29,318 bases of DNA from an uncultured virus (IMG/VR IMGVR_UViG_2675903231_000002) (IMGVR_UViG_2675903231_000002); one strand, 5' to 3'. Shown: positions 1 to 16,433, numbered from the stretch's first letter. Numbers and translations are program-made. Notes: generated from the sequence alone by a model not told the origin.

Positions 1-61
1 CAACGAGGATCAGCCGTGTGCGTTCCGGGTCCACGACGCGAACCGGTTTTACTGTGCTCAT
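1..61 (-). CDS. ThiF/E1-like protein, N-terminal fragment (runs off the window)
   Basis: ATG at 61-59 overlaps the upstream stop (ATGA). It reads MSTVKPVRVVDPERTRLILV, then G as the first base of the next codon. This fits the first strand of a ThiF Rossmann fold, and the gene follows the JAB and E2 genes. Confidence 0.6.
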   Translation of the reverse strand, partial: MSTVKPVRVVDPERTRLILV

Positions 62-987
62 ACGGGGGTCACCACCGCAGTAATGGGACCGTCGAAGACG
101 GCCGAGGCCTCCACCTTGACGAACTTGCCGCCGCATGAGTACCGGAAGGCAAGAGTGGGCCTCTCCCGATCCGCTTCTCCAACTACCCCGTACAGACCCG
201 TTCGTACCTCGTCCTCGTCGTCTGTCGCTGACCAGTAGGCGGGTAGCCGGCCGTGCGAGTGGATGTGAGCGACCACGAAACGGTGTTCAGTTTCCATGAA
301 GCCCTCGCCTTGTACGGTGACGGCCGAGGCCTTTTGCTCGGGCCACACCACATCGTAGCCAATGTCGGTGTCGTACACGATGTACGCCAGGTGCTCAATG
401 TCCGGCTCGGACTGAAAGCGTTGCACAATCTCGCTCAGACACCAGACAGGAATTTTCGGTACGAACAGATGGAGCGGCGCACGCAGGCCCGTGCTTCCGT
501 ACACGGGTGCGGCGAAGATGCCTACTTGTGTTTGCCGAACCTCATAAACACGGCCATCCCTGTCGAGCAAGTAGTACACCGGGGGCACCGGCGGGGCCGG
601 CGGCTCCGTGTACACGGTGATCGCCGCCCCTTTCTTGTGGCCCTTGAGTACGGGTACGATGTGGCCCGTTTCCTTGTCATAGACCATCTCTGTGCGCTCT
701 TTCGTGAGCTCCGGGAAGGTCTGCTCCAGCCAGGCCCGTACATCCTCCAGTTTCATCGTCCGGCTGGGTACTTCGAGCCGGTGACCCGCGTAGTAGACCA
801 CACGATCAATTTCGTACTCGTCCGGTTCTGGTTCCTCAGCCGGTTTGGCTGTGGCCTTGGCAGACGTGGTACGCGTTGTCGGCTTCTTCACGGATTTCTC
901 TGGCTCCAGCACCTGTGGAATCAGGCCCTTGCGCTCGTCCTCCGGCAGAAGGTCGAAAATCGTGGTTTGCTGGATGTTCGTGTTCAT
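58..987 (-). CDS. Ubiquitin-like domain fused to a JAB/MPN metallopeptidase (PRTRC protein C + A-like)
   Basis: JAB motif E...HIHSH-x7-S-x2-D (HIHSHGRLPAYWSATDDEDE). Residues ~60-120 (YAGHRLEVP...EDVRAWLEQTFPEL...KKG) resemble PRTRC protein C. SD AAGGAG upstream. Confidence 0.8.
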   Translation of the reverse strand: MNTNIQQTTIFDLLPEDERKGLIPQVLEPEKSVKKPTTRTTSAKATAKPAEEPEPDEYEIDRVVYYAGHRLEVPSRTMKLEDVRAWLEQTFPELTKERTEMVYDKETGHIVPVLKGHKKGAAITVYTEPPAPPVPPVYYLLDRDGRVYEVRQTQVGIFAAPVYGSTGLRAPLHLFVPKIPVWCLSEIVQRFQSEPDIEHLAYIVYDTDIGYDVVWPEQKASAVTVQGEGFMETEHRFVVAHIHSHGRLPAYWSATDDEDEVRTGLYGVVGEADRERPTLAFRYSCGGKFVKVEASAVFDGPITAVVTPV

Positions 988-1016
988 GTTCCATGTCTCC
1001 TTTTGGTTTAGATGAT

Positions 1017-1754
1017 TTAGTACCGTTCGGCCCGGTATGCGTTGTGAAATTCAGGGACGGTTCTCCCGAACGGGATGAGCCATTCGTGGGAGATGCCCCC
1101 GTTAGCTTGGACGGCTTCTAAAAATGTGGCGTACTCCCTGTAGGGCGAGTTCTGGCTGGTTCCCACGCCGAATAGGTCGCGATTGTTGGGCGTACTGATG
1201 AATCCGAACACACCCCTGTTCACGACTTCGTGCAGCTCGCACACAGTGTTGTGCGTCCAGCACACGCGGCCGTCATCAAACACGTTAGAGTACGGCCAGC
1301 GGTACAACGGAGAAATCTCCGTGACCACGGAATCTGTCGTGACGGCAATTGAAAGACCGATAAGCTGTTTTGTATGCAAGGTCCAGCGGGCCCGGTAGAC
1401 TATCGTCGGGATGTGCACCAGATACGAAGCGCCCTGATACACCATCGGATACTCGGTCGCCGGCACGTATCCCGTGAGGATGACATCTGTCCAACGGGAG
1501 CACTCCGCGATATCAACCATGAGTGTCCGATCCGGCAAACGTGGCAGTTTGGTGACTCGCAAGTCGGCCACCTTGAGTTGCTCAACCACCATGGACCGAT
1601 CCAACAGGGTAAGCAGCTGGTGCCACCCTACCGTTTTGTAGTGAGTGACGCCGTTTGCCCTAATCTCGAGTTCCGGAAGCTTGTCCGGTTCGAGTTTGAG
1701 AATCAGAGCGTCGGCGGCCTCCTTACCTTTCGTGTGGAGGCTTACGGTGTTCAT
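1017..1754 (-). CDS. Prokaryotic E2 (family D / PRTRC protein B-like)
   Basis: LYRWPYSNVFDDGRVCW motif with the putative catalytic Cys. SD GGAGGTG. Adjacent to JAB and ThiF genes. Confidence 0.8.
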   Translation of the reverse strand: MNTVSLHTKGKEAADALILKLEPDKLPELEIRANGVTHYKTVGWHQLLTLLDRSMVVEQLKVADLRVTKLPRLPDRTLMVDIAECSRWTDVILTGYVPATEYPMVYQGASYLVHIPTIVYRARWTLHTKQLIGLSIAVTTDSVVTEISPLYRWPYSNVFDDGRVCWTHNTVCELHEVVNRGVFGFISTPNNRDLFGVGTSQNSPYREYATFLEAVQANGGISHEWLIPFGRTVPEFHNAYRAERY

Positions 1755-2274
1755 AAAATTGCTTCACCTCCCAGGCACTTAGGATCACGTCCCAAGCGGC
1801 CATGATGTCGTCTGTTAATGCTTCGGGCAGAACCCATATGAAGTGCGGCTCTTCGATGGTGTCGCTCAGGCCAATGCGCGATTGCACCGTACGTTGCGCG
1901 CACCACCAGATGAAATGCCGCCATTCGGCGACCTGTTGCGGATCTTGGCCCTTGATGATGATCACGCAACCGATGTCGTACACGACTTCCTCGTCGTGGA
2001 CATCACCTTCAAGCCAGTGGCAATGTGCCCACATCTCGTCGTCGGCAGATACGAAGATTACTTCGCTGGTCAGACCCGGAGCGAGCAGACGCAGCATGAT
2101 CTCCAACTGCGCGTCGTAGATCTGATCTCCCGGGCCGTTCATGTCCATCCCATACGGCCAGCCCAGGTTATCGATCTCCGCGACGAAGCCTGTTCGGCGA
2201 AGGAACCGTCGCAGAAAGTCGAGGTGCACCAGACCTTCGGCCAGATGCTGACGCAGTTCGTCGTCGAGGATCAT
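1723..2274 (-). CDS. Hypothetical acidic protein in the PRTRC-like cassette
   Basis: Start re-assigned to ATG 2274 (MILDDEL), which has SD GAGGAG and an ATGA overlap with the upstream stop. Confidence 0.7.
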   Translation of the reverse strand: MILDDELRQHLAEGLVHLDFLRRFLRRTGFVAEIDNLGWPYGMDMNGPGDQIYDAQLEIMLRLLAPGLTSEVIFVSADDEMWAHCHWLEGDVHDEEVVYDIGCVIIIKGQDPQQVAEWRHFIWWCAQRTVQSRIGLSDTIEEPHFIWVLPEALTDDIMAAWDVILSAWEVKQFYEHRKPPHER

Positions 2275-2603
2275 ATGAACTCCTCCCCGACCGACGGGTC
2301 CGGTACGGATGGCAATCTGGTGCACTCGGACAACAGTTCATCCCACACTGTGTCGTCCAAGCGCATTTGCGCCATGTCCCGCAACGGGTCTCCGTAGTCA
2401 TCGTGATGGAGGATCTCCCAAGCAACAGCTAGGGTTTCATCCGTGAGGTTGAGGATGTACTCCGCAGCAAGATCCTCGTCGATCATGCGACGGAGGAATT
2501 CTTCCGCAGCTTGAATGAGGTTGGCGTACTCCGGGGATGGTTGTGGCAACTCTTGTATGGTGGCCACGAACTGGTCCCAGTGCAGCGTAATGTGGCGTTC
2601 CAA
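2271..2603 (-). CDS. Small, very acidic hypothetical protein
   Basis: TTG start with SD AAAGGAG. 110 aa with about 25 D/E, 6 R and no K. Confidence 0.75.
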   Translation of the reverse strand: MERHITLHWDQFVATIQELPQPSPEYANLIQAAEEFLRRMIDEDLAAEYILNLTDETLAVAWEILHHDDYGDPLRDMAQMRLDDTVWDELLSECTRLPSVPDPSVGEEFI

Positions 2604-2690
2604 GAGGTTTCACTCCTTTGCCCATCCCCGTTGTCACGGGGGATGGGCGAATTTATCCCCACGTGACTCGGGTGTGGTGCAAAGGATGAG
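2604..2690 (-). promoter_or_regulatory. Long intergenic hairpin sequestering the SD, with an alternative hairpin
   Basis: TCATCCTTTGC just after the helicase stop pairs with GCAAAGGAGTGA. The alternative GCCCATCCCC/GGGGATGGGC hairpin leaves the SD free. Confidence 0.7.
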
Positions 2691-5600
2691 TTAGAGGGCG
2701 AACAACATGATCTGGTTGTCCGCTACGGACTGCTTCTTCACCCGCTTCGCCTTCTCGACCATACCCATTTGCTTCCGCCACTCACCGTACGTCAGCAGCG
2801 GCGTCGCTTCCTGGGCCACGGTTGCCTTGGCGACAGGCTTGCGGTGCGTTCCCTGGACATCTTGCGCCTCTTGAGCGACCGCGAACAGTGGAAGTGCGAT
2901 GACTTCCGCATCGGCCGGCGCATGTTGAACAGGCCGCGGCGTTGGTGCGGCCGGCACCGGCTGGATGGTCTCCTCCGGTTCAGGCACACCTGCCAAGCGC
3001 CGTGTCTCTGACGCCAGTCGACGCATCGCCTGCTGAATCTCGCGCTTGAAGCGCTCTTCGGCCAGCAGGATGACCCCGCTTGGAATGTCCTTGTCGGCGA
3101 GCGTCTTCCACTTCTGCGCCAGGTCCTCCACGTTCCCGAGGCAGTTGGCAATGGCGTAGGTCGAGGCCGATTTGTCGTCCTGCTCGATGAACTGCGCGAC
3201 TTCGGACTTGTCGAGACGGCCTTCCAAGAGCATCGCGTGGCTGCGTTTTTGCAGCATGCGCTTGAACTGAACCATCTCGTACGAGCCGTTGTAAACGTAG
3301 TAGTACACCTTGCAGGTGCGGTGTTGGCCAATCCGCCAGGCCCTGCGGGCAGCTTGCCGCATGGTCGCGATCTCGTCGGTGAACTGGTAGAACATCAGCG
3401 TCGGGCAATCGAGCAGGTCAAGGCCCACTTCTACCAGCTTGGCATTGCAGACCACAACCTGCGTTCCCTTTTTCACTGCTTCCTCCAGCCACTCAACGCG
3501 ATCCTCCGGTGAGACGGTCGCCTGCAAGACTTGGGCGCGTATGCCATGTTGCTTGAGCACATCGGCAATACGCCGGTCCTGCTGGACTTCCCCGCTGTAC
3601 CGGACGTATACCACGCAGCGACGGTTTTGCGCCAACTCGGCTTGGATGTCCTCCAGCAGACGCCGTTCTTTCGCGGTCAGTTCGTCCGGACCATACGGCG
3701 GGAAGAAACTGACGGACTCATCCCCCACCCACACTTCTTGCGGCATATGCGGCTGGTTCGCCGCATTTACCACGGACGGGATGAATTTCGCGAAGGCGTG
3801 TTGGTTGCCGATCGCATATTGCTGGCGCATGACGCCTTCAAGGGCGTTATGGAAGGACCGGTACGCCACGGCGTGTTCGTCGTCCATGTCCACGAAGATC
3901 GGTCGTTCCTCCAATTCCACCAATGGCAGGCCCATGTCGCCCAGTTCCAGAAACACCGTCTTGTCCGCCAAGTGATTGACGAACAGCTTGGGCGAAAGAC
4001 CCGGGATTTCCTTTGGCGGATTGAGGATGACCTTTCTGGACGTGGTACCGCCGGCTTCAGTTACTTCGTCCGCCGCATACCGACCGCGCTGCTCCAGCGT
4101 GCCGTACAGGTGCACGAATTTGTTGAGCGAACGGTGGTCCAGGCCATCCGCTTTCATCTCGGCCGGGCAGATGCGCCACAGCAGATGGTACAGGCTTGAG
4201 GCCTTGCCGTCGCTGAGCGTGCCCGTGAGGCCCAGAACGCGCCGGCTTGCGCCGACAATCGCACCCATCGCCTCACCCTGGCCCGAGTTGCTTTTGTACT
4301 GGTGCAGCTCATCCACGATCACCAGGTCGAAGTATCCGCGCAGGTATCGTTGGATGAACCATGCCGGTTGCAGACGACGGTGTTTGAGCCCGCTGACGGG
4401 TTCTCGCTCGGGCACCGCGTCGCGCATCAGGTTCGCGCCACACTCTGTGCAGTGGTATTCCGTGATGGACTTTTTGAACACGTAACGCGTTCTGCGGCGT
4501 TCCGTACCACCTATGCCAACCGCGGTGTACTCTTCCACCCCTGTGGCAAGGTCGGAGAAGCCGAGTTTCAGTTCCGCCAGCTGGTCCTCCACGCAGTCGT
4601 GTTTCTTGGCCTCTTTCCAAGCGGTCTGCGTGGTCTTCTTCTGAATGCCGTGGCATTCAGGGCAGATCCACACGTCCTCAAGCGCAAACACGGTGATTGC
4701 AGCATCCGGCGTGCCCGGCATGTATTTGACCGCGCCGCCGTGGGCAACCAATACGGTCTTTCGGTTCTTCTCGTCCTTGGTCTCGGGCCTCTGTGCCACT
4801 ATGACACGCTCCTTGTAGATGAGCGCGGGCACTTTCGGCATTCCGAGTTTCGCGGTGTCACGGGACAACAGGACGAATTCCAACGGTTTTTTACCGTTTC
4901 GAACCTCATTGTCCCGATAACGCACGACGTCCTTCCAGGACTCGAACACCGTCACCGGTGTGCCCGGGAGCGTCTTACCGATCTCGTCCCGAATCCATTT
5001 GGGAATGGTGATACCGGGAACGAGAAGCAATACCGCAAATCCACGCTTGGAACGTTCGGCCAAGGCCTTCGCGGTGGCGAGACTGATGATTGACTTGCCC
5101 GTCCCCATGTCGGACGAGACAATCACGCCCTTGCTCTGCTCCAGACCGTTGAGAATCGCCTGTACGGTATGTGCTTGGGCCGGGAACGGAACCCGTGCCA
5201 TCTGCGCAATCGCAGGGTTGATCGGACGGTCCAGGTCGTGCGCTGGCGTGGCCATGTCCTCGATGGTGGTGGCCAGGTGAGGCGCGTACGCCTGAAGATA
5301 ATCAATCACGTGGTACTCGCCATTTTCGTCCGGGTTCAGCACTTCCCCCAGGGCTGGCGCATCCGTCAAACCTTCCGGGAGCTGAATCGAACCAGAGCGA
5401 AGCAAGTCGCTCAGCAAATTCTTGGCCGCTTCCTCCGTCAGGTTCGGCGAGACTTCAAACGCCTGCACGTGCTTCCAGTCCGGCACGTCAGGGTCGCTCC
5501 AAACCGAGAGCTGCTGCACAAAGTTGCGCCTGTTGCACGCCAGCCAGATGACGTCCTTCCACTCCGCAACGTACGGAAGGTTGAAATCGCCTGCGAAGCG

Positions 5601-5978
5601 TCGCATGAAAAGGTCGGCGATATCTCCACCGTCCGGTACGATGAGAATGCGGGACTGTTCTGGCGCCAACTGCTCATCCACAGCCGACTTGTGCAGGATG
5701 ATCGCGTGCGTGAGCTTGCCGATGGGCCGCGTCACGAACCGATATCCGTGCTTGTCTGTGAAGATGTTGTCGGAATCAAAGCTCGACCGATTCCGCTTCA
5801 AACGCAGCCGGCTTCCCTTAATCGCGTGCGCCACAATGGCTCGGGTCGCACTATCCAGGTCAATGAGGCCTGCAGCGACGAGATCGTCACCGTTGCGTTG
5901 AAAGTTCCGGCGGGTCACGATGAAGTGCACCGCCGCCTCGACGTAATGCTTGTCGTCGCTGTAAACGAGTGTCTTCAC
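2691..5978 (-). CDS. SNF2-like superfamily 2 helicase with a Zn-ribbon insertion
   Basis: Walker A SDMGTGKS, DELH, motif III LTGT and motif VI QAARRAWRIGQ. CPEC and CTEC pairs lie between motifs I and II. Confidence 0.9.
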   Translation of the reverse strand: MKTLVYSDDKHYVEAAVHFIVTRRNFQRNGDDLVAAGLIDLDSATRAIVAHAIKGSRLRLKRNRSSFDSDNIFTDKHGYRFVTRPIGKLTHAIILHKSAVDEQLAPEQSRILIVPDGGDIADLFMRRFAGDFNLPYVAEWKDVIWLACNRRNFVQQLSVWSDPDVPDWKHVQAFEVSPNLTEEAAKNLLSDLLRSGSIQLPEGLTDAPALGEVLNPDENGEYHVIDYLQAYAPHLATTIEDMATPAHDLDRPINPAIAQMARVPFPAQAHTVQAILNGLEQSKGVIVSSDMGTGKSIISLATAKALAERSKRGFAVLLLVPGITIPKWIRDEIGKTLPGTPVTVFESWKDVVRYRDNEVRNGKKPLEFVLLSRDTAKLGMPKVPALIYKERVIVAQRPETKDEKNRKTVLVAHGGAVKYMPGTPDAAITVFALEDVWICPECHGIQKKTTQTAWKEAKKHDCVEDQLAELKLGFSDLATGVEEYTAVGIGGTERRRTRYVFKKSITEYHCTECGANLMRDAVPEREPVSGLKHRRLQPAWFIQRYLRGYFDLVIVDELHQYKSNSGQGEAMGAIVGASRRVLGLTGTLSDGKASSLYHLLWRICPAEMKADGLDHRSLNKFVHLYGTLEQRGRYAADEVTEAGGTTSRKVILNPPKEIPGLSPKLFVNHLADKTVFLELGDMGLPLVELEERPIFVDMDDEHAVAYRSFHNALEGVMRQQYAIGNQHAFAKFIPSVVNAANQPHMPQEVWVGDESVSFFPPYGPDELTAKERRLLEDIQAELAQNRRCVVYVRYSGEVQQDRRIADVLKQHGIRAQVLQATVSPEDRVEWLEEAVKKGTQVVVCNAKLVEVGLDLLDCPTLMFYQFTDEIATMRQAARRAWRIGQHRTCKVYYYVYNGSYEMVQFKRMLQKRSHAMLLEGRLDKSEVAQFIEQDDKSASTYAIANCLGNVEDLAQKWKTLADKDIPSGVILLAEERFKREIQQAMRRLASETRRLAGVPEPEETIQPVPAAPTPRPVQHAPADAEVIALPLFAVAQEAQDVQGTHRKPVAKATVAQEATPLLTYGEWRKQMGMVEKAKRVKKQSVADNQIMLFAL

Positions 5979-6053
5979 GCCATGCGCCCAGCGTGCACCA
6001 CGTCCGGGGCTTCGGCCCCGGTTTCGTGATGCACCGGGGCTTTCGCCTCCTTT
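5979..6053 (-). promoter_or_regulatory. Alternating inverted-repeat switch upstream of the helicase
   Basis: GCCCCGGT/ACCGGGGC competes with GTGCATCACG..CCGGGGC/GCCCCGG.CGTGGTGCAC. Confidence 0.7.
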
Positions 6054-6080
6054 GCGTGGTGATTTATGCAGGTCGCGTGG

Positions 6081-7130
6081 TCACTGCAAGTCCAAAATCG
6101 TCCCGTCCGGCTGGATGGTCCGCACCGCGGTCACGTAGGATTCGGTGTCGATGATGGTCTCCGACCCGTCGTCGTTTACCACCACTTCGCGCTCAACGAT
6201 TTTCCGCGTCATGCCGACGACCATGTGCCTGTTCTCGCCTACACCGACCGCGCCATTGAGCGCACCGGCCGCGATGAGCGTGGCCATGTGCGTGCGCCGA
6301 AACGGCAAGAGTGGGCGGCGCAGCGTTGAACCTGTGTCGATGGGCATGAGCATGTTGGCCGCCACCTTGAATGCTTCGGACTGTGCGAGATCGAGCCGCA
6401 GTTCTGCTTCATCGAGGATGTATCCCCGGAACAGAATTTGCGTGTCGATGTTCTCCGCAGTAGGCACCGTCCAACGTCGGCCGTCCGGTGCGTCCAGGTA
6501 CGGCATTGGCAGGTTCTCGTCTTTGCCGTAGGCCAAAAGCTCATTTTTGACTTGGCGATCGGCTTCGGTCATCTCCTTGGAACTGGTGAGATTCCGTTGA
6601 CGGCGACGCCCGAAGACCACAACCTGTTTGAAAGCCTTGTACTCGTCATCATCGAACCGGTACACGGCCAAGTCGGTGTAACGGTGAACCAGTGTGCTCA
6701 CCATTTCTGAACCGAGCGTGTACCGCGGGATGATGTACACAAGCACGCCATCCGGAGCCAGGTATTTCGTCAAGTCCTTCAGGAAAATGAGTTCCTTGCG
6801 GAATATCTCCCCTCCGAGACCCGACTGCGAATCGTACGGCGGGTTGAGCCACATCAGCTGCATGCCGGCAGGTTCAACACGGGCCCATTCGTATCCGCAA
6901 TGCACAACCTGGTCAAGTTGCTCCTTCGCCTTCAGCGCGCGCTGTCCATCGAGTTCGATTCCGTATGTCACCGCGTCCAAGGGTGCAACCGACGCCAGTG
7001 CCTCACCTTCGCCGCAGCACGGGTCGAACCAGCGTGCGGGGCCTGACGAAACAAGGCGGTCGCGAATCTTCTCCACCATGTTGAGCGGAGTCGGATAGTA
7101 CCCCATCTTCGCGATACCTGCGTAGCGCAT
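6081..7130 (-). CDS. SAM-dependent DNA amino-methyltransferase (DUF6094-like)
   Basis: Motifs GYYPTP, FDPCCGEG (motif I), YGIELD and LNPPY (motif IV). Start re-assigned to ATG 7130 (MRYAGIAKMG). Confidence 0.88.
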   Translation of the reverse strand: MRYAGIAKMGYYPTPLNMVEKIRDRLVSSGPARWFDPCCGEGEALASVAPLDAVTYGIELDGQRALKAKEQLDQVVHCGYEWARVEPAGMQLMWLNPPYDSQSGLGGEIFRKELIFLKDLTKYLAPDGVLVYIIPRYTLGSEMVSTLVHRYTDLAVYRFDDDEYKAFKQVVVFGRRRQRNLTSSKEMTEADRQVKNELLAYGKDENLPMPYLDAPDGRRWTVPTAENIDTQILFRGYILDEAELRLDLAQSEAFKVAANMLMPIDTGSTLRRPLLPFRRTHMATLIAAGALNGAVGVGENRHMVVGMTRKIVEREVVVNDDGSETIIDTESYVTAVRTIQPDGTILDLQ

Positions 7131-7169
7131 GGCATCCCTCGCGTCTGGCGCTTGGAACGTGGAGGCATC

Positions 7170-7212
7170 CCCCCTCCGTCCCAAACGTGTAGACGGAGGG
7201 GTTCACCTCCTT
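7170..7212. repeat. Direct repeat copy 1 (palindromic, 43 bp)
   Basis: CCCCCTCCGTCCCAAACGTGTAGACGGAGGGGTTCACCTCCTT. It differs from 7504-7547 only in the hairpin loop. Confidence 0.95.
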
Positions 7213-7217
7213 TGTAT

Positions 7218-7469
7218 TCAGTCGTAAAAGTCTGTCGTTTCGTCGCTTCTCCGATTGGAACGGTCCGGCACCACGCGGAGTCCAAAAATACCTTTGGCGA
7301 AAAACGCGATGCCAACCCCTAGAAGGACGATACTAAAGTTATCACATGCCATTTCCTGTGCAGACTTAGGAAACATGTTCCACCCAAAATACCATGTTTC
7401 GAGTGTGTTAAACACTAATGCCAGAAGCATTAGAGCCAACCCAATCCATATCAGAGTCTTGGCTCTCAT
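7218..7469 (-). CDS. Small two-TM membrane protein
   Basis: ATG 7469 with SD AGGGAGG. Two hydrophobic helices. Visibly more AT-rich than the flanking genes. Confidence 0.8.
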   Translation of the reverse strand: MRAKTLIWIGLALMLLALVFNTLETWYFGWNMFPKSAQEMACDNFSIVLLGVGIAFFAKGIFGLRVVPDRSNRRSDETTDFYD

Positions 7470-7503
7470 CGTTGTATCCTCCCTTGGTATGACGCGGAAG
7501 GAT

Positions 7504-7547
7504 CCCCCTCCGTCCCAAGCGTGCAAGACGGAGGGGTTCACCTCCTT
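7504..7547. repeat. Direct repeat copy 2 (palindromic, 44 bp)
   Basis: CCCCCTCCGTCCCAAGCGTGCAAGACGGAGGGGTTCACCTCCTT. Confidence 0.95.
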
Positions 7548-7559
7548 GGTTTTACTGAT

Positions 7560-7784
7560 TCAGCGCCCTTCCCCACGTTTTGACCGAGCCAACAAGTCAG
7601 AACGTCGAAAGTCCATGTACTTGCTCAGCTCAATTTTCAGGGCTTCAATCTCCGAAGGGGTGAGCTCAGATGTGTCCAGGTCGATGAACACAGACCTCGC
7701 GTCTTCAAAAACCCCTTCTAATTCTTGTTCCACTTGTGGTAACCGTTCACTGGTCCGCATGTTGCCGACACGTGGACGAGCCAA
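7560..7784 (-). CDS. Small hypothetical protein
   Basis: TTG start with SD AAAGGAG. Co-oriented and fills the gap between neighbours. Confidence 0.65.
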   Translation of the reverse strand: MARPRVGNMRTSERLPQVEQELEGVFEDARSVFIDLDTSELTPSEIEALKIELSKYMDFRRSDLLARSKRGEGR

Positions 7785-7850
7785 TGAGACATCTCCTTTG
7801 TGCCTATACCGGGTTAAATCGCACCGGCGTAGCGAATGATGTAATGGTGT

Positions 7851-8093
7851 TCAGCGCACGAATGCTCTCGGGTGCCAAACCGGTTCTGTTGAGACCGGCT
7901 TAACCAGCCTCAGCCTCGGAAATTCGGGCTGATCGGGTGTTGTGACGGGTGTTGCGATCGCAGCCTCTCCGCTTACCGACACCCGACGCCAACGACTGAG
8001 CCGGTTCAACCGTCTCTCCACCTTGGCCACAAACCGTCCGTACCAGCTATCCGTGCACTCTGTCCACAACAGTCCGTCCGCTATTGCTCTCAT
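7851..8093 (-). CDS. Small basic hypothetical protein
   Basis: ATG with SD GAGAGGGG. Co-oriented. Confidence 0.6.
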   Translation of the reverse strand: MRAIADGLLWTECTDSWYGRFVAKVERRLNRLSRWRRVSVSGEAAIATPVTTPDQPEFPRLRLVKPVSTEPVWHPRAFVR

Positions 8094-8185
8094 TTTCGTC
8101 CCCTCTCGCCCTGCAAGTAGGGGACGTAGAAGGCTTGCGCCCTCTGTCCCCTAGCTTGCAGACAGAGGGCTTAGCCCCCTTTTCG
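8094..8185 (-). promoter_or_regulatory. Alternating inverted-repeat switch
   Basis: GCCCTCTGTC/GACAGAGGGC plus CGTCCCCT/AGGGGACG (hides the SD) compete with CTGCAAGCTAGGGGAC/GTCCCCTACTTGCAG. Confidence 0.75.
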
Positions 8186-8192
8186 ATTGATG

Positions 8193-8585
8193 TTATCGGT
8201 CGATCTGCTCCGCGATGTACTCGAGTTGCTCAAGCAGTTCTCGGTTGTTGAGCAGCTGAATTGACCATGGGGCCCAAAATACGCGGCTTGCTGCCTCACA
8301 CCAACGCTTCATGTCGTTCACAAGATCATGCTCGATCCCATACGCGAACGTGTGAATTGCGTCGGTCATTTCCTGGAACGACTTTACTTTTTGCTGCAGA
8401 ACCGTGTCTGGAATCCAAACAAACTTCCACCGGCCATCAGCTTCAATAACGTACCCGTATTTCTCATGCACGAGGGTCAGCACGGGGCTGTCGTAGGTGT
8501 ACGACCATCCCCGTTGGAATAGATCGTCCAGGGCTTGCAGCGTTTCAGGAGATGGTTTCTGGAGCTTACTTGTGTCTCGTTCCAT
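8193..8585 (-). CDS. Hypothetical protein
   Basis: ATG with SD GAGGAGGAG. 130 aa. Confidence 0.75.
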   Translation of the reverse strand: MERDTSKLQKPSPETLQALDDLFQRGWSYTYDSPVLTLVHEKYGYVIEADGRWKFVWIPDTVLQQKVKSFQEMTDAIHTFAYGIEHDLVNDMKRWCEAASRVFWAPWSIQLLNNRELLEQLEYIAEQIDR

Positions 8586-8609
8586 GCGCCAGTCTCCTCC
8601 TCAAAATGG

Positions 8610-10082
8610 TTATTGTAGTGCTTCAATGACGAACGAAAGCGTCGCATCGTCGGCCACCTGCGGCTTGGCAATCACGTCGCTGAACGGCCGGACGGAACGG
8701 TCGTCGTATCCTATCACGACAGAGATCACCTGAAACTCCTTCTCGTTTTTCACCCGGGCGAATTCCCCGTGCAAAAACTTGTCGGAGACTCGGCTTTCCC
8801 CGTCGGTGATGAACACGATGTCGCCTTTCTTGAACGACGCTTCGTCCATGATCTGCACAGCCTCTTTCAGCGGTCTTTCAAAGTTTGTACCGCCGTTAAA
8901 GAAGTGCTGCGCCATTTCAACGAGTTGAACGGGCGACGCGTCCTTTGGCCGGGGCCACTTCTGCACGAAAATCTCGGGCTCGCTTCCGAAGTGCACCACG
9001 GCAAAGGCTCGCCTTTCCCGCCGTGCGATGGCGAACAGGGCCAGGGCGATGCCCTTCTCCCAGATTTCGACCGTACCAGCCGTGCTTCCGGATTCGTCAA
9101 GGCAAACCACGATGGGGCCCTGTCCTTCCCGCTCGAAGCCACGCAAGTCGTATTGCAACAGTCGGCGTTCTGCGAACCGTTGGATGAAATCATCCTCGGT
9201 CGCTGGGTCGGCCAGCAACAACAACTCCGATGGCAGGATGTTCGCGAGGTCGTCGCCCATCGTGATGTTGACGATCTCGGTCGGCGGATGAATGGTCCGG
9301 TTTTTGCGCTTGTTGAGGGCCATCATCTGCATACGGCCCGCCATCCGAGCGATCTCCCGGACGTGCGGATTCGTGCGCAGGATGTGCGCCAGTTCCAAGC
9401 GCTCCTTCCCACTCACCGGCTTACCGTCACCCATTCCGACACCAAACGCCTGCATCATGCGTTGATCTTCCTGCGCTTCCTGAACCGCCTGCTCCAACGC
9501 CTGTCGGACAGCACGGCCTATCGAACCGCTTTGAGCGTCGAATGCCTGCTCAAATTGGTCCGTGGCCTGTTGGAGCGTCTGCATCAGGTCGGCGGCTTGT
9601 TTTTGGAGCGCTTGTATTTGGTCAAGCAGCTGTGCCGCGGCTTGGCTATCTGGCATGGCATTCGCGGCTTCCTGGTACGCTTCGGCCTGGTCCAGCAGTT
9701 GTTGTAGCTGTTGTTCCAAGTCCTGTACTTGGTGTGCCGCGTGCCTGACATCCTCCGGCATCGCCTGTTCCAAGGCGTCCCGGAGGCTGAGCGACCCCAG
9801 CGCCGCACTGTACTCGTCCATCTGCGTCGTTTGACGCAGGTCTTTCCAAGCTGTTTGGCGCATGAGGTTTTCCATCACACGGCGGTTCACCGTGGGGCCC
9901 TGTTCGTTGATGTGTGGGCTCGCCTTGAAAAGGCTCGCCCACACATCCCGCATGAGACCCTGAAATGGTTCTTCCTTAACCGCAGCCTGAATCCGCTCGG
10001 ACTCTTCGAGGATCCGGTTCCAGGTCCGACGGTCGTAGCGATCTGTCTCAATTGCACCCACGTCGCTCAGATTCCCAGGCAT
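8610..10082 (-). CDS. VWA-domain protein (ViaA/CoxE-like)
   Basis: MIDAS motif DESGS, then GGTNF and FITDGE. Q/A-rich coiled coil. Overlaps the AAA gene. Confidence 0.9.
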   Translation of the reverse strand: MPGNLSDVGAIETDRYDRRTWNRILEESERIQAAVKEEPFQGLMRDVWASLFKASPHINEQGPTVNRRVMENLMRQTAWKDLRQTTQMDEYSAALGSLSLRDALEQAMPEDVRHAAHQVQDLEQQLQQLLDQAEAYQEAANAMPDSQAAAQLLDQIQALQKQAADLMQTLQQATDQFEQAFDAQSGSIGRAVRQALEQAVQEAQEDQRMMQAFGVGMGDGKPVSGKERLELAHILRTNPHVREIARMAGRMQMMALNKRKNRTIHPPTEIVNITMGDDLANILPSELLLLADPATEDDFIQRFAERRLLQYDLRGFEREGQGPIVVCLDESGSTAGTVEIWEKGIALALFAIARRERRAFAVVHFGSEPEIFVQKWPRPKDASPVQLVEMAQHFFNGGTNFERPLKEAVQIMDEASFKKGDIVFITDGESRVSDKFLHGEFARVKNEKEFQVISVVIGYDDRSVRPFSDVIAKPQVADDATLSFVIEALQ

Positions 10083-11191
10083 TTGCTCGTCACTCCTTTG
10101 AGCAGTTCTTCCACCTTCTTGTCGGCTTCCTGGATCCGTTGAATCTTGGATGGAGAGCCGCCAGCGGAGATGAAGGCCTGGATCTGCGTGCGGATGGTCT
10201 TGAGTTTCTTGATCGCTTCCGTCCCGATGGCAATCGCTTGGTCGTCCGAGGCTTTCATCGCGTTGTTCGCGATGTCCCGGGCATCCTCAAGCAACTCGGC
10301 CACCTGACCGGCCACCGGGTCGAGGCGCTTCCGGACGATGGTCGCCACGGTCGCCTTTTGCGACGGGTCCTCCCACAGCGCGTGCTGCAGGATTTCCGCG
10401 TCTTCCTCCAAGACAACGTGGTCGCGTCCGGCCAGCACAGCCCGGGCGGGCAGTAGGCGCTTGGCCACCTGCACCCAGCGGCGGTCGGAGAGGAAAATCC
10501 CCTCTTGCGCCAGATCGGTGCGCAGTGTTACCAGCGCATCTGCGACGGATTGGTCAATCGGAATTTGCTCCGCCAGGTGCTGCAACAGGTTCAGTTCCGC
10601 CAAGGTGATTGGTGCGGGAGACTGCGCTGGCGACTGCATCAGCATCGCCGCAAAGTTTCCGTCGTCCTTGACGTATCCCGGCTCGTACCGCAGCATGAAC
10701 CGGTCGAATACGGCCTGCAGCTCCTCCTCCTGCGGATACTCGTTGGATGTCCCAATGAGCGTCTTGAGTGGGGACGGCTCTTGCCGCGTCCCGTTGTAGA
10801 ACACCCGCTCGTTGATGAGCGTGAGCAGGGCGTTCAGGATCGCGCTGTTGGCCTTGAAAATTTCGTCCAGGTAAGCGATGTGCGCCGTAGGCAGCTTTCC
10901 GGCAGTGATCCGCTCGTATTGACCCGCCTTGAGTTTGGCTAGGTCGTACGGGCCGAACAGCTCTTCCGGAGTGCTGAACTTGGTGAGCAACCACTGGAAG
11001 TAGTTGCAACCCTCAATCAAACCCGACAGTGCCACTGTAATCGCACTTTTCGCCGTACCCGGAGGGCCGATAAGAAGCACGTGAACGTTGGCGACCAGGG
11101 CCGTGATGAGCCCATCCACAACATCCTCGCGTTCTTTGAACTGCCCCTGCAGATACGTCCGGATGTCGTTCAACTTTTGAATGGCGTTCAT
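10067..11191 (-). CDS. MoxR/RavA-family AAA+ ATPase
   Basis: Motifs GPPGTAKS, STPEELFGP, LDEIFKANSAILNALL and DRF. Confidence 0.92.
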   Translation of the reverse strand: MNAIQKLNDIRTYLQGQFKEREDVVDGLITALVANVHVLLIGPPGTAKSAITVALSGLIEGCNYFQWLLTKFSTPEELFGPYDLAKLKAGQYERITAGKLPTAHIAYLDEIFKANSAILNALLTLINERVFYNGTRQEPSPLKTLIGTSNEYPQEEELQAVFDRFMLRYEPGYVKDDGNFAAMLMQSPAQSPAPITLAELNLLQHLAEQIPIDQSVADALVTLRTDLAQEGIFLSDRRWVQVAKRLLPARAVLAGRDHVVLEEDAEILQHALWEDPSQKATVATIVRKRLDPVAGQVAELLEDARDIANNAMKASDDQAIAIGTEAIKKLKTIRTQIQAFISAGGSPSKIQRIQEADKKVEELLKGVTSKCLGI

Positions 11192-11197
11192 CAGAAA

Positions 11198-11266
11198 TCT
11201 CCTTTCGCCCCCGTGCTGTGCCGGGGGCTAAGGTTGATTAGCCCCGCACAGCCGGGGGAGAAGGAG
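11198..11266 (-). promoter_or_regulatory. Long hairpin from the upstream stop codon to the SD of the AAA gene
   Basis: CTCCTTCTCCCCCGGCTGTGCGGGGCTAA pairs with TTAGCCCCGGCACAGCACGGGGGCGAAAGGAG. Confidence 0.8.
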
Positions 11267-12166
11267 TTACAGCTTTTCGATCAAGGACATCATCTGCTGT
11301 TCGAGCAGGTCAACGTCCGTCTCCAGCGTTCCGATGCTCTCTTTCAGGATCTCCTGATAGAGAGTCACTTCCTGCCGGATGTGCTTCGCCCGCTCAAGCA
11401 ACGTCTGGATAGTGTCCTCCGTAATCACGTCTGCTTTCAACGTCGCTCGGATTTCGTTCAGGATCGTCTCGGCCTTGTTGGTCACGACGTCCCGAACCAT
11501 GTCCCGGGCCTCAGCCGTGTTCTCAACCGGTAGGTGGTATGCCTTGCATCCAGCCAAACGGTTGATGAACGCGATAAGCTGGAAAAGCAGTTCCTCGTTC
11601 TGCCGGGGAATCAGGTACACACCGCCTGACTCCTTGAGCGCGGTGGCCGACAAGTCGTTCAGAACCGCGTATACGGCCCGACGCTTGGCCCCGTCATCAT
11701 ACGTGGTGAGGAACAGCTCGTAGTTTTTGCGGAAGGTGTTTACCGCGTCCACGATAAACGGCTCGTCCCTCACGATCTCGACATCCACGGTCTTGTAGTT
11801 GTGGTCGAATCGCAGCAAGGCGGCCTTCGAATCGTAGGTCAGCCGGTGTCCGCTGGTATCCCGGATTTCCACGACAAGGTGACGCACCACCTCGTCCCGG
11901 TTGTGCCAGACGTCACGCACCAGCAGCTCGATCCGTCGATCACCGTCCAGCTTGGCACGTCCTTCGATGGACTTGCTTGCCCGCCGGTACGCATCCACGG
12001 CCCGAATGGGCGGGAGTTTGTATCGGTCAGGCAAACCCGATTCCATGAAGGCTCGCGCCATCGTGACCTGATCCGTGTAGGTTTCCCCGATGATGTACCA
12101 AAACAGTTGGCCGATCCGGCTGGCGGTCTGGTTTTGGTTCGCAACGAGATTCTCCAGTGCAAACAC
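11267..12166 (-). CDS. DUF6744-like protein (partner of AAA/VWA)
   Basis: Motifs IGQLFWY, DAYRRA and GGVYLIP. C-terminal coiled coil. GTG start with SD AAAGGAGG. Family assigned from memory of such trios. Confidence 0.7.
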   Translation of the reverse strand: MFALENLVANQNQTASRIGQLFWYIIGETYTDQVTMARAFMESGLPDRYKLPPIRAVDAYRRASKSIEGRAKLDGDRRIELLVRDVWHNRDEVVRHLVVEIRDTSGHRLTYDSKAALLRFDHNYKTVDVEIVRDEPFIVDAVNTFRKNYELFLTTYDDGAKRRAVYAVLNDLSATALKESGGVYLIPRQNEELLFQLIAFINRLAGCKAYHLPVENTAEARDMVRDVVTNKAETILNEIRATLKADVITEDTIQTLLERAKHIRQEVTLYQEILKESIGTLETDVDLLEQQMMSLIEKL

Positions 12167-12190
12167 TGTTGAATTCCTCCTTTTGTTTCG

Positions 12191-12331
12191 TTTCAGTGGT
12201 CTCAGGGTTCAGAGCTATCCTCTTGCCTTGAGACTGACGAATTTGTCCTCATCTCCAAGCGCCACCCGCCTGCACCGGGTGGGTGAATTTACCCGGTGCA
12301 GCGGGTTTGGCTTAGAGTGGGAACCACTGAA
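12191..12331 (-). promoter_or_regulatory. Multi-branched intergenic structure
   Basis: TTCAGTGGT/ACCACTGAA closing stem with an inner CCCGCTGCACCGGGT/ACCCGGTGCAGGCGGG hairpin. GTCTCAAGG/CCCTGAGAC competes with the closing stem. Confidence 0.7.
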
Positions 12332-13507
12332 TCAGCTTGCCGCGCGATCGGCTTCTTCGACTTGTGCTGTGAAGAGGGGGGCGATCAGACCGAGGCCGCC
12401 GTCCCCTACCGGTTTGACCGTGATGGGCTTATTGGGCCCGTCCAATCCCACCTCAACCTGTTTCACGCCGTCGGAGGAACGGAGCAAACCGATCCAGTAG
12501 TTGATGTTGCACAGGAGCGATAGCTCACTCGTAATCGTGCTGCTGACCACATCCACGTCGTGCTTCGCAGTTCCGTACTGCGCCGACGTGGCTGACACAA
12601 CAACGCGATCAGCGAAGAAGGTGAACTCCGCCCGTTGGTGTTCAGTCTCAGAAAGGATTGATACCCGTTCGCAGGCCTCCAGCAAAGTCGCCCGGTCGAT
12701 GATCACAGACGCGCCTGGTTGTTGCGGAATGATGCGGGATACATCCGGGTAACCCGTGCTCAATCCGCGAATGACCATGCGGTATGCGTCATCTCCCCAG
12801 GAGACCGTGCACGACGATGATCCGATAGAGAACGTAATCTCCTCGTCATCGTCATGCGCCGGCAGCACTGCCGCGAGTTTATCGAGCAATGCGGCCGGTA
12901 CTGGCAGGCTCCTCTCGTCTCCGGATACTTCCTGGCACGGTACGTTGTAAAGCGCCAGGCGTATCCCGTCGGTCGCCACTCCATGAAGCGTGGTGTCCGA
13001 GATTTTCAGCAACACGCCAGTCAGGGCCGGACGAGCTTCTCCCTTCGCCGCGGCATACGTCGTACGCCGCAGCAACCGGAACAAGTCCGGAGCAAGGATG
13101 ACGGCCGTGGTTGATTCGGCCGGGTCGTCACCGTAGGGCGTGAAGAGCTTCGGATCAAGCCCTGCCAGCTCGTATTTGGCGTTGCCAAAGGTGACGGACG
13201 TTCTCCCTGCGGTTTGGTGCAGGGTGATCTGACCGCTGGCACGCTTCACAATCTCGTGCAACTCCTTTGCCGGGAGCAGGCACGTACCTGACTTTTCGAT
13301 GGTGACTGGCGAGTTCGCCGCCTCCTGGAACAACGTCCGGCGGACCGACATGTCCTCGCTGCTCGCGTAGAAATCCACCCGGTCTTCGTCCTTGTTCGCC
13401 TGGATGAGCACGTGCCGCAGCACCGCCTTGTTGGTCGAGGTCGGGACCACACGTACCAGGTCGCGCAACACCTTTTCCAGCTCGGTGTTGTTGAAGGTTG
13501 CTTTCAT
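12332..13507 (-). CDS. dnaN: DNA polymerase III beta sliding clamp (element-encoded)
   Basis: Motifs RPALTGV, VATDGIRLA and YPDVSRIIP. Start re-assigned to ATG 13507 (MKATFN) with SD AAAGGAG. Confidence 0.92.
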   Translation of the reverse strand: MKATFNNTELEKVLRDLVRVVPTSTNKAVLRHVLIQANKDEDRVDFYASSEDMSVRRTLFQEAANSPVTIEKSGTCLLPAKELHEIVKRASGQITLHQTAGRTSVTFGNAKYELAGLDPKLFTPYGDDPAESTTAVILAPDLFRLLRRTTYAAAKGEARPALTGVLLKISDTTLHGVATDGIRLALYNVPCQEVSGDERSLPVPAALLDKLAAVLPAHDDDEEITFSIGSSSCTVSWGDDAYRMVIRGLSTGYPDVSRIIPQQPGASVIIDRATLLEACERVSILSETEHQRAEFTFFADRVVVSATSAQYGTAKHDVDVVSSTITSELSLLCNINYWIGLLRSSDGVKQVEVGLDGPNKPITVKPVGDGGLGLIAPLFTAQVEEADRAAS

Positions 13508-13550: not shown

Positions 13551-13847
13551 TCAACGAAAAACCAGCCGATTCCACAGAGGCTCCGCTTTCGTGGGTACCT
13601 CCAGGATGTCGCCTGGTTTGAGTTGCATGGCATCACGGATGTGGTTGCGCTGAATGATAGCCTCTACCACATACCGCGTGTCGTCCGGACATTGTTTCTC
13701 CGCGATGGACCACACCGTTTGCCCTGGCTCGACGACGACCTGTTTCCAACCCGATAAGTCGGGAGGAAGAAGCCGTAGGACCAGGAGTGCGTCGATCCCC
13801 GCGAGGATAAGCCCAATCCCGGCGTATCGTTTGATTCGCATTGCCAT
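13551..13847 (-). CDS. N-terminal TM plus LysM protein (YneA-like)
   Basis: Hydrophobic N-terminus, then VVVEPGQTVWSIA...LKPGDILEVP (LysM). Confidence 0.85.
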   Translation of the reverse strand: MAMRIKRYAGIGLILAGIDALLVLRLLPPDLSGWKQVVVEPGQTVWSIAEKQCPDDTRYVVEAIIQRNHIRDAMQLKPGDILEVPTKAEPLWNRLVFR

Positions 13848-13925
13848 CCCCTCCGTGGGTATCGTCCACCCACGGGACCCGCCGCCCGAGGGTGATGAGT
13901 AACCCCCGTATGGCGGGTGGGGTTG
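13848..13925 (-). promoter_or_regulatory. Intergenic hairpins overlapping the SD of the LysM gene
   Basis: ACCCGCC/GGCGGGT and CCGTGGGT/ACCCACGG stems. The second overlaps the start of GGAGGGG. Confidence 0.6.
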
Positions 13926-13931
13926 TACAAC

Positions 13932-14195
13932 TTACTGGCGCTTACGCCGCACTGCTACAGTGGACTCCCATTCATCCGCGGAGTACACCGTGATGATCGT
14001 GTTGGGCTTGGCCAGAACGACGTGCACCGGCTTTCCGTTGACATCCCCGCGTTTCATGACGCGGGTTCCGTTCTCTTGTACGGTCACGCCGACCTGGGCG
14101 ATCTGCTCGACCGCTTCAACGGGTAACCGGCGTTCGAGAATGCGTCGCACGGCGTGCCCGTCAAACACGGGCTTGGACATGGTTTTCAGTTTCAT
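13932..14195 (-). CDS. DUF4258-family protein
   Basis: FDGHAVRRILERRL...PVHVV...IITVY. Start re-assigned to ATG 14195 with SD GGAAGG. Confidence 0.8.
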   Translation of the reverse strand: MKLKTMSKPVFDGHAVRRILERRLPVEAVEQIAQVGVTVQENGTRVMKRGDVNGKPVHVVLAKPNTIITVYSADEWESTVAVRRKRQ

Positions 14196-14199
14196 GGTG

Positions 14200-14337
14200 T
14201 CACACCTTCCATTCGTCGATGTCCTCTCGGCGTGCGGTAAGCGCAGCCGGCAGAGTGCCATCGAAGTAGTGTTTGAGCATCTGGTCAAGCACGTATCCGT
14301 CGTCGTCAGACGCAAAGAACGCTGGGATCTGACACAT
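14200..14337 (-). CDS. 45-aa acidic small protein (not in the ORF track)
   Basis: MCQIPAFFASDDDGYVLDQMLKHYFDGTLPAALTARREDIDEWKV. It fills the gap between flanking genes (3 and 4 nt spacers) and has a G-rich SD. Confidence 0.65.
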   Translation of the reverse strand: MCQIPAFFASDDDGYVLDQMLKHYFDGTLPAALTARREDIDEWKV

Positions 14338-14340
14338 CCC

Positions 14341-15900: not shown

Positions 15901-15904
15901 GGGA

Positions 15905-15995: not shown

Positions 15996-16039
15996 CGTTA
16001 CCGTCCTTCTTGGTTGGGCCGCGGATGTGTCGAGGCCCG

Positions 16040-16354: not shown

Positions 16355-16433
16355 TTGAGGTCCGTCCTTTCGCATTTCGACCCGTCCCTTCGGTATTCTG
16401 CTGTATCAGCATTATATACCTTTGGGACGAATC

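Follow-up and report, generated by a model that had tools for sequence, protein, structure and literature searches.

Candidate clamp-binding motifs in a helicase and a ubiquitin-like protein encoded with a beta clamp on a putative Alicyclobacillus conjugative element

How might a conjugative element bring its own helicase and its own ubiquitin-like modifier to the DNA on which they would act? The question is raised by a stretch of 29,318 nucleotides (IMG/VR IMGVR_UViG_2675903231_000002; G000:C49:62001-91318), hereafter the window, whose long open reading frames (ORFs) lie nearly all on the minus strand. We read the window as that part of an integrative conjugative element of Alicyclobacillus which serves replication and establishment; an integrase and type IV secretion genes are present on the same contig, and the close relatives are all from Alicyclobacillus. 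The window encodes a beta clamp (DnaN), a superfamily 2 (SF2) helicase of 1095 amino acids (aa), and a polyprotein in which a ubiquitin-like (Ubl) domain is fused to a JAB peptidase. An earlier reading made from the sequence alone (the sequence-only reading) proposed that the helicase and the Ubl-JAB protein bear clamp-binding motifs through which the clamp recruits them to newly replicated or incoming DNA. The alignments, structure prediction, and gene neighborhoods described below lead us to favor, with moderate confidence, the view that both proteins are beta-clamp clients, tethered by short linear motifs in disordered termini.

Clamp-type motifs in the helicase tail and the Ubl-JAB N-terminus

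The clamp-binding motif has been defined as Q-phi-x-[L/M]-[F/L] or Q-phi-x-[L/M]-x-[F/L], and natural examples sit in the C-terminal tails of Pol II and Pol IV or in the disordered N-terminus of Hda (PMC11139829). According to the same 2024 review, LF alone can bind the clamp, the Gln being helpful but dispensable. Transposases bind the clamp by means of a C-terminal QLxLF (PMC4549789).

The helicase gene (positions 2691..5978, minus strand) encodes a protein that matches the Helicase_C, ResIII, and DEAD families and, weakly, SNF2; it also matches the DNA helicase family phrog_62 (3.9e-36), and PADLOC returns weak SNF2-type matches only. In distant homologues (P0035-P0037 and P0039), the helicase is fused to a methyltransferase, the two being adjacent genes here. 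The C-terminus of the window protein reads KKQSVADNQIMLFAL up to the stop codon, equally given as SVADNQIMLFAL. Its last residues are QIMLFAL (residues 1089-1095; 2694..2714, minus strand), as the sequence-only reading had claimed, and QIMLF fits the published consensus exactly. In a 24-sequence alignment, Q1089 is found in 24/24 sequences, L1092 in 19/19, F1093 in 23/24, and A1094 in 21/24, and the C-terminal island reads D-[DN]-Q-x-x-L-F-A-[LF] across the alignment. The C-terminus is intact in 31 of 36 helicase homologues, and 28 of the 31, scored with patterns looser than the published definition, bear either a pentapeptide (21) or a hexapeptide form (7) of the motif, the latter seen in the ends QLGFDF, QLAFAF, and QLGFAL; the three that bear neither are the most distant. 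A methyltransferase-fused homologue, 29% identical, ends in QQLSLF, and a 34%-identical helicase from the viral-contig collection ends in GQLSLFDLLKEECG, which is of the QLSLFDLL type. Among 3501 crude ORFs of the genome, a terminal Q[LIVM]x[LIVMF]F within the last 12 residues was found in three, the helicase being one of them. A second of these ORFs, of 378 aa, ends in EQISLFGADLP and, judging by its size, may be Pol IV.

Judged indirectly, from composition and alignment, the helicase tail, which the sequence-only reading called flexible, may be disordered: it contains 18% Pro and 66% disorder-promoting residues, and it is variable and indel-rich except for three islands, consisting of LPLFA (residues 1029-1033), a basic stretch, and the C-terminal motif. 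The first island belongs to an internal motif, ALPLFAV (residues 1028-1034; 2877..2897, minus strand), in which L1031 is conserved in 23/24 sequences, F1032 in 21/24, and P1030 in 18/23. In relatives the internal motif reads QLSLFD, QLGLFD, or QLDLFN, and at locus L161 it is QLDLFNLPDFEE. The tail contains, then, two candidate clamp motifs ~55 residues apart, which could let one helicase tail reach both pockets of the clamp dimer. The basic island, TYGEWRKQMGMVEKAKR (residues 1063-1079; 2742..2792, minus strand), lies between them and follows the pattern TxGExRxxMGxVxKAKR, with T1063 and K1076 in 24/24, R1068 and G1072 in 23/24, and M1071 in 22/24 sequences; it could contact DNA or the clamp. 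The internal motif goes beyond the sequence-only reading, as does the E1 gene that is located just left of the window and is described below.

The Ubl-JAB gene (58..987, minus strand) starts with an ATG at 987, with a GGAG ribosome-binding site ~9 nt upstream. The product begins QTTIFDLLPEDE (longer readings of the same N-terminus are MNTNIQQTTIFDLLPEDERK and MNTNIQQTTIFDLLPEDE), and the N-terminal motif is present where the sequence-only reading had placed it. The protein consists of an N-terminal tail, a beta-grasp Ubl domain at ~58-120 that ends in KKG120, and a JAMM/JAB peptidase domain at ~137-309. Prok-JAB of Pfam was matched with 25.7 bits, and Prok_Ub with 21.4 bits, which is below the cut-off of 25. 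The AlphaFold2 model, based on a 46-sequence alignment, has a predicted local distance difference test score (pLDDT) of 85.8 and shows a beta-beta-alpha-beta-beta order in the Ubl domain. Its top Foldseek matches are JAMM deubiquitinases, and they include a ubiquitin-bound archaeal Rpn11 homologue and a bacterial Ubl-deubiquitinase complex. Residues E198, H243, H245, S253, and D256, as well as K119 and G120, are invariant in the alignment. Residues 1-8 and 26-47 have pLDDT values of less than 50, against ~67 over the motif; the model therefore agrees with the flexible N-terminus described in the sequence-only reading and predicts that the motif sits in a disordered tail.

The N-terminal motif, QQTTIFDLLPEDE, occupies residues 6-18 (934..972, minus strand). 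F11 is present in 46/46 sequences and is the sole invariant position in residues 1-57; L/I10, D12 (32/46), and L14 (35/45) are the next best kept, and the remainder of the tail is variable. The linker columns around the motifs are mostly less than 50% conserved. Since the motif positions are conserved inside otherwise variable tails, we reject a chance origin of the motifs, and conservation, by which the sequence-only reading had proposed to judge them, is observed in both proteins. Within the first 75 residues of 54 Ubl-JAB homologues, Qxx[LIVM]F is found in 28 and hF[DGSAE]xx in 44. QLDLF is present in the relatives P0057, P0062, P0065, P0070, and L011, and QMDLF in P0061, P0071, P0072, and pTHECO01; QFDLF also occurs. 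The homologues encoded by plasmids are 27-39% identical to the window protein and have starts such as MSQQMDLF, MKQFDLF, ...QETIF, ...NVSIF, and ...EALFDM, an N-terminal [Q/N/-]xx[LI]F being kept in 7/7 plasmids (QSSLF, QMDLF, QFDLF, QETIF, NVSIF, EALF, and PDLF). The start of E. coli Hda (NTPAQLSLPLYLPDDE), whose N-terminal motif has been established by experiment, and that of the window Ubl-JAB (NTNIQQTTIFDLLPEDE) have the same layout.

Two further observations concern the architecture of the Ubl-JAB family. In several distant relatives (P0063, P0067-P0069, and P0073-P0076), the precomputed annotation places PF02817, a peripheral-subunit-binding-like domain, between the LFDLLGE motif and the Ubl domain. 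A word-based search, the sensitivity of which is limited, found no stand-alone short Ubl protein (split form).

The element-encoded clamp and the linkage of motif carriers to clamp genes

The proposal that the element encodes a DnaN of its own is confirmed. The ORF at 12332-13636 (minus strand) matches the three DnaN Pfam domains PF00712, PF02767, and PF02768, all above cut-off, and TIGR00663 with 152 bits, the cut-off being 137.65. Because the DnaN match starts at M44 of the ORF, the real gene is taken to be 12332..13507 (minus strand), encoding 391 aa, and its end at 13507 is the one given by the sequence-only reading. The best Protein Data Bank matches are beta clamps (1e-30), and phrog_947 is matched at 1.3e-53. 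The host dnaN is located on a separate contig (G000:C60:6559-7674; 307.5 bits with TIGR00663), and the window dnaN is thus an extra, divergent copy. In a library of 1.84 billion representatives, just 23 proteins matched the element clamp at E<=1e-30, followed by a continuum of ordinary clamps, which places it in a small, separate clade. The dN/dS value of ~0.15 indicates purifying selection.

To compare the peptide-binding pocket, the element clamp was aligned to E. coli DnaN, with the list of pocket residues taken from PMC11139829. The window clamp retains R152, L155, T172, G174, R176, L177, P242, R246, N320, Y323, and P363, and it has Ile, Ile, and Ala in place of H175, V247, and M362, substitutions comparable to those of the host clamp (Leu, Ile, and Ser, respectively). 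Among 18 element clamps, R152, L155, D173, P242, and N320 are found in 18/18 and R176 and R246 in 17/18; the pocket is kept even though overall identity is down to 24-39%. As judged from the alignment, the peptide-binding cleft (subsites I and II) of the element clamp is preserved. No clear pattern of co-variation between motif type and pocket residues was seen across element classes.

The element clamp also has a C-terminal extension, FTAQVEEADRAAS (12335..12373, minus strand), which the host clamp lacks. Clamps of the element-type clade (P0095-P0115) have a variable extension of 12-20 aa that is not found in ordinary clamps and emerges beside the peptide-binding cleft. It ends in [S/T]A in 18/21 representatives, mostly as KSA, QSA, or KTA; that of the window clamp ends in RAAS.

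Gene linkage also speaks for the helicase and Ubl-JAB as clamp clients. Two or more dnaN matches are present in 23 of 45 Alicyclobacillaceae genomes. Ubl-JAB was found in nine of the 45, every one of which belongs to these 23. The helicase was found in 16, of which 14 belong to the 23, whereas in the other two it is represented by no more than a fragment or a piece at a contig end. The helicase and the extra dnaN reside on one contig in 12 genomes, mostly 4-10 kb apart. These genomes are kin, and the counts are therefore not independent.

Outside the family, the Ubl-JAB subfamily was found in 0/400 other Bacillota genomes at E<=1e-8. A metagenome scan yielded three loci, two of them with the same sequence and one just 1 kb in length. 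Ubl-JAB matches in viral contigs covered the JAB domain alone and were set aside; two helicase relatives from such contigs were used. A tblastn search of PLSDB detected the module in 73 plasmids, mostly of Bacillus, Paenibacillus, and Lysinibacillus, and such distant replicons carry more weight than the counts within the family. The neighborhood was surveyed in 7 of the 73 records; the gene tables of plasmids have gaps, and a divergent clamp may easily escape notice. With the metagenome locus L011 added, a clamp gene was found within ~8 kb of the Ubl module in 5/8 contexts outside the Alicyclobacillaceae sample, namely L011, the Rubrobacter plasmid, Alicyclobacillus sp. TC p1, pBsph, and pBpOF4-01. 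In the Rubrobacter marinus plasmid, from the Actinomycetota, dnaN is 4.6 kb upstream of the E2/Ubl-JAB/ThiF genes, with MoxR, VWA, and DUF6744 genes near (L176 25153-29071). In pBsph of Lysinibacillus sphaericus (L180 19797-25858), the ThiF gene overlaps a dnaX-like gene, which is followed by a delta-prime-like gene and then by a clamp gene, whose 378-aa product is a divergent clamp by hhalign (98.6%, E 1.2e-15). A gene row of the pBsph type, broken by a group II intron, is present in Alkalihalophilus pBpOF4-01 (L181 11803-20663), where a 368-aa ORF is likewise a divergent clamp (hhalign 98.0%). Such divergent plasmid clamps (~370 aa) escape Pfam; the dnaX-like gene is annotated in pBsph only and the delta-prime-like gene in both plasmids.

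Motifs of the same type occur in other proteins encoded nearby. A 143-aa protein, for which a protein Atlas score of 0.92 suggests, as a lead only, a PcfK-like identity, has a disordered tail rich in T, A, K, and P and ends in TQLSLFDDAEGGEAL or a similar sequence (QLSLF[D/G]DAEGGE). Q[LMI][ST]LF is kept in all 18 tblastn matches of this protein, which represent 8 distinct sequences. In sister elements that do not have the Ubl operon, the PcfK-like gene fills the slot of that operon, either after the helicase gene or after dnaN-RadC-ArdC (L168:12836-13267 and L001:8189-8617; also L002, L003, L157-L161, L169, and L170); the genome of the window has no copy. The 5'-3' (flap-type) exonuclease of pBsph (L180:11685-12587) begins with MGQITLFDIQEK (MGQITLFD), which places a canonical clamp motif ahead of its catalytic domain. 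An ORF-terminus scan of the contig that contains the window singled out only the helicase and Ubl-JAB. A private clamp with unrelated neighbors that bear one type of terminal motif is the pattern that would be expected of a hub-and-clients arrangement.

Some weaker candidates were also noted. Small ORFs right after ThiF (L179:22185-22736 and L177:16953-17402) end in NGQLEFAL and SGQFEFAF, which are of the hexapeptide type, like the helicase ends QLGFAL and QLAFAF. A 162-aa ORF without a family match (L011:12079-12567) begins with VNEKQLTFTFDIEQNDEE, a possible N-terminal motif of the hexapeptide type.

The ubiquitin-like cassette and possible roles of the motifs

What the recruitment of Ubl-JAB could accomplish depends on the enzymes encoded with it. 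The E2-like protein (Prok-E2_D; 1017..1754, minus strand) scores 25.1 bits with PF14460, the cut-off of which is 25, and S156-N157 ... V164-C165-W166 are invariant in 10 orthologues. Only the start of the gene for the ThiF-type E1 lies in the window (1..136, minus strand), and the gene continues to the left of it (G000:C49:61243-62136); the protein matches PF00899 at 7.5e-15, and its GxGGxGG loop and C235 are invariant. The conjugation machinery looks catalytically intact, as far as its sequence reveals. With the JAMM residues, K119-G120, the E2 Cys, and the E1 loop and Cys all in place, self-cleavage after Gly120 may reasonably be supposed. All of the PRTRC models score below cut-off (PRTRC_A 49.5/101.8, PRTRC_B 17.3/131.45, PRTRC_C 16.7/45.95, and PRTRC_ThiF 114.4/144.75), and by the NCBIfam models the cassette is related to PRTRC but is not a member. 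PADLOC recognized no known defense system for the operon, its E1 matches being weak. No E3-like or RING protein was recognized; the helicase has a four-Cys insert, but this amounts to one zinc-ribbon-like motif, formed by the invariant residues C439, C442, C510, and C513 (window ~4440-4664, minus strand) between helicase motifs I and II. This insert recalls the RING inside helicases of the Rad5/HLTF type, but it has cysteines for one zinc site only and occupies another position.

We propose the following course of events. Clamps on newly primed, copied element DNA, loaded as the incoming or replicating strand of the element is copied, would recruit the helicase-methyltransferase pair to the fresh duplex. 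The same clamps would recruit Ubl, which, when freed by JAB cleavage behind Gly120, would retain the motif on its N-terminal tail. As a consequence, charging, transfer, or removal of Ubl would occur at the clamp. The clamp in question could be that of the element, that of the host, or both.

Several observations weigh against the proposal that the helicase and Ubl-JAB are clamp clients. Short hydrophobic motifs are degenerate. The window copy of the internal helicase motif has no Gln, and the helicase relative with the QLSLFDLL-type end has no dnaN match within 10 kb. No clamp was found among ORFs of 300-470 aa in the 12-20 kb flanks of the Ubl module in the Thermobacillus, Paenibacillus rhizovicinus, and Brevibacillus plasmids. 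As regards specificity for the clamp of the element, the element and host pockets are nearly alike, and the sequences therefore do not single out the element clamp over the host clamp. The main weakness concerns Ubl-JAB itself. The sequence-only reading regarded both motifs as matches to the clamp consensus, and this holds for the exact QIMLF of the helicase and for the relatives of Ubl-JAB but not for the window Ubl-JAB, whose QTTIF falls outside the strict definition, its second position being Thr and its fourth Ile. In addition, the Gln four residues before the Phe is missing in 26/54 Ubl-JAB homologues, the more distant ones, in which LFDLLGE is kept, which means that the conserved core is wider than, and partly unlike, a clamp motif.

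These last two features could be explained if the helicase, together with the PcfK-like protein of sister elements, were the sole client, and if the LFDLL-acidic motif of Ubl-JAB docked elsewhere (on E1, E2, the JAB domain, the MoxR/VWA pair, or the transfer machinery) or were a degradation signal. The persistence of hF-D-L-L-[G/P]-E-E without the Gln is in keeping with such a role, as is the moderate rather than very low pLDDT over the motif, where short helices are modeled; moreover, bacterial Ubls are described as bearing diverse N-terminal extensions without known function (bioRxiv 10.1101/2024.11.21.623966). However, exact QLDLF, QMDLF, or QFDLF stands at the same place in many Ubl-JAB relatives, the module recurs beside clamp and clamp-loader genes, and the loss of Gln need not abolish binding if LF is sufficient (PMC11139829). 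Furthermore, the QLSLFDLL-acidic sequence at the end of a helicase and the internal motif of L161 indicate that different proteins share one motif type. We therefore consider it unlikely, though deserving of real weight, that the helicase is the only client.

A further step beyond the tethering of both proteins would be that Ubl serves as a portable clamp-docking tag. Once cleaved by JAB and charged by E1 and E2, it would be joined at the clamp either to the clamp or to its riders, as a bacterial counterpart of PCNA ubiquitination, or it would be attached to other proteins, which would acquire a clamp-binding motif in this way and so be drawn to new element DNA. We regard this extension as doubtful. 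If it is true, the module beside private clamps or clamp loaders in Alicyclobacillus, Lysinibacillus, Alkalihalophilus, and Rubrobacter would represent one conserved clamp-centered pathway.

Another scenario, which corresponds to the PCNA-ubiquitin parallel suggested by the sequence-only reading and is speculative, is that the clamp is the substrate: Ubl would be joined to a clamp lysine, of the element or of the host, in the manner of PCNA ubiquitination and would switch clamp partners. A clamp-docked Ubl would bring its own C-terminus, or a charged E2, near clamp lysines, and distant replicons have an intact-looking E1/E2/Ubl/JAB set next to their clamp genes; beta-clamp modification is described as little explored (PMC11139829). 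On the other hand, the sequences identify no target, no E3-like protein was recognized, and elements with the same clamp and helicase exist that do not have the Ubl operon. This scenario seems to us improbable. Modification of the clamp or its riders, if it did occur, would give PCNA ubiquitination its first parallel in bacteria. Least probable of all is an anti-host function, in which the motif tails would occupy or block the host clamp and slow host replication or repair during establishment while the element kept its divergent clamp as a separate, insulated pool. In its favor, the motif is borne by several co-encoded proteins whose functions are unrelated, the C-terminal extension that distinguishes the clade of element clamps is close to the pocket, and a toxin-antitoxin system that targets the clamp has been reported (PMC12795458). 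Against it, the carriers (helicase and exonuclease) are enzymes for which an action on DNA is plausible, and, because the element pocket is as conserved as that of the host, no insulation is visible.

The view that both the helicase and Ubl-JAB are tethered to a clamp can be set against several known systems. In eukaryotes, PCNA is ubiquitinated by Rad6-Rad18 and by Rad5/HLTF with Ubc13-Mms2. As in that pathway, a sliding clamp, an E2, a ubiquitin-fold modifier, and an SF2 helicase (with weak SNF2-type matches) are encoded together here; unlike in that pathway, no E3/RING is recognized, and the link to the clamp would be a motif on the modifier itself, for which we know of no eukaryotic counterpart. 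The phage clamps of PHROG 947 offer a likeness in that a mobile replicon supplies the clamp itself along with several proteins that have terminal docking-type peptides. In phage T4, the gp45 clamp is docked by the C-terminal tails of gp43, gp33, and gp55. Unlike in the phages, the clamp here is of the DnaN type and is carried by a conjugative element, and among the window genes we saw none for a DNA polymerase. The PRTRC cassette (TIGR03735-03739) and the Bil/Bub systems likewise comprise a ThiF-type E1, a Prok-E2_D-type E2, a beta-grasp Ubl, and a JAB protein on a mobile element, but the present cassette scores far under the PRTRC cut-offs, and its Ubl is fused to JAB and has a motif-bearing N-terminal tail. 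As with the tails of Pol II and Pol IV and the N-terminus of Hda, the helicase and Ubl-JAB have a short clamp-type motif at a terminus; the carriers differ in that one is an SF2 helicase linked to a methyltransferase and the other a ubiquitin-like protein, and neither is known as a clamp partner. Motifs of the QLxLF type, mostly C-terminal, are also well documented in mobile-element proteins that bind the host clamp, among them insertion sequence transposases, Tn7 TnsE, Tn3 TnpA, and a group II intron protein (PMC4549789, PMC11417375, PMC6698660). Those elements rely on the host clamp, whereas this element adds a clamp of its own and several unrelated motif carriers.

Prokaryotic E1/E2/Ubl/JAB operons were noted on conjugative elements in 2006 (PMC1779556). 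The words clamp, DnaN, and helicase are absent from the main text of that paper (apart from an author named Clamp in the references) and from the 2024 Ubl preprint. A literature search, which covered papers without their supplementary files, found none that links a bacterial Ubl or a PRTRC cassette to the beta clamp and no function or target for PRTRC-type cassettes, which have been known from genomes since 2006. Docking by clamp motifs is itself known; what is likely new, to go by the sequences, is that classes of clamp client not previously linked are involved, one of them a ubiquitin-like modifier. A clamp motif on the modifier and the linkage to private clamps or loaders provide a concrete hypothesis on the function of PRTRC-type cassettes. 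They also suggest that conjugative elements and megaplasmids of Bacillota bring their own clamp together with its clients (helicase-methyltransferase, PcfK-like protein, flap-type exonuclease, and Ubl), which would add to knowledge of the ways in which incoming DNA is replicated and kept safe while an element establishes itself.

Surrounding genes in the window and in related elements

To the left of the window, the contig encodes the ThiF-type E1, a tyrosine recombinase, a VirB4-like ATPase, and a type IV secretion system pilin. At the other end of the window, between 21 and 29 kb, are type IV secretion-type and pilus genes and a gene for an actin-like segregation protein. Two conserved ORFs of 110 aa and 200 aa (1723..2603, minus strand) separate the helicase gene from the E2 gene and are kept beside the latter in 10 loci; neither belongs to a family in Pfam, NCBIfam, PADLOC, or PHROGs, and the 200-aa ORF has none in Atlas. 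The gene for the DUF6094 DNA methyltransferase (6081..7184, minus strand; PF19587, 6.9e-35) is next to that of the helicase. Between the clamp and the methyltransferase are genes for DUF6744, MoxR (RavA-like), and VWA (ViaA-like) proteins (8610..12166, minus strand). This trio is missing at L001-L004 and from most Alicyclobacillus sister elements. A MoxR-type AAA ATPase gene and a VWA gene are also located near the Ubl module of the Brevibacillus plasmid (L182 16501-19092).

On the other side of dnaN are genes for a DnaG-type zinc-ribbon protein, a Gp3-like protein, SSB, an SMC/RecF-like ATPase, and DUF4258 and LysM proteins (13551..19090, minus strand), and this row is also found upstream of dnaN in relatives, which carry ArdC and RadC genes near the clamp as well. 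In its gene set (primase-like, SSB, and orphan methyltransferase), the surroundings of the clamp are similar to the regions of conjugative plasmids known as establishment or leading regions. Such leading regions are enriched in SSBs, orphan methyltransferases, and anti-restriction genes (PMC11541004), and the main text of that paper contains no mention of clamps, helicases, or ubiquitin. The LysM protein encoded beside dnaN (13551-13847, minus strand) has a weak likeness to YneA, a cell-division suppressor (30.7 bits vs. a cut-off of 60).

Rearranged copies of the element were also encountered. In a complete genome of the same genus (G027:C1; L059-L062), the element is split inside the methyltransferase gene into two pieces far apart, the one with the clamp at 2.01 Mb and the one with the helicase and Ubl at 3.17 Mb, and one Ubl-JAB copy is interrupted by a stop codon. 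At L004 and L161, the helicase gene is broken by an insertion of ~1.6-2.7 kb.

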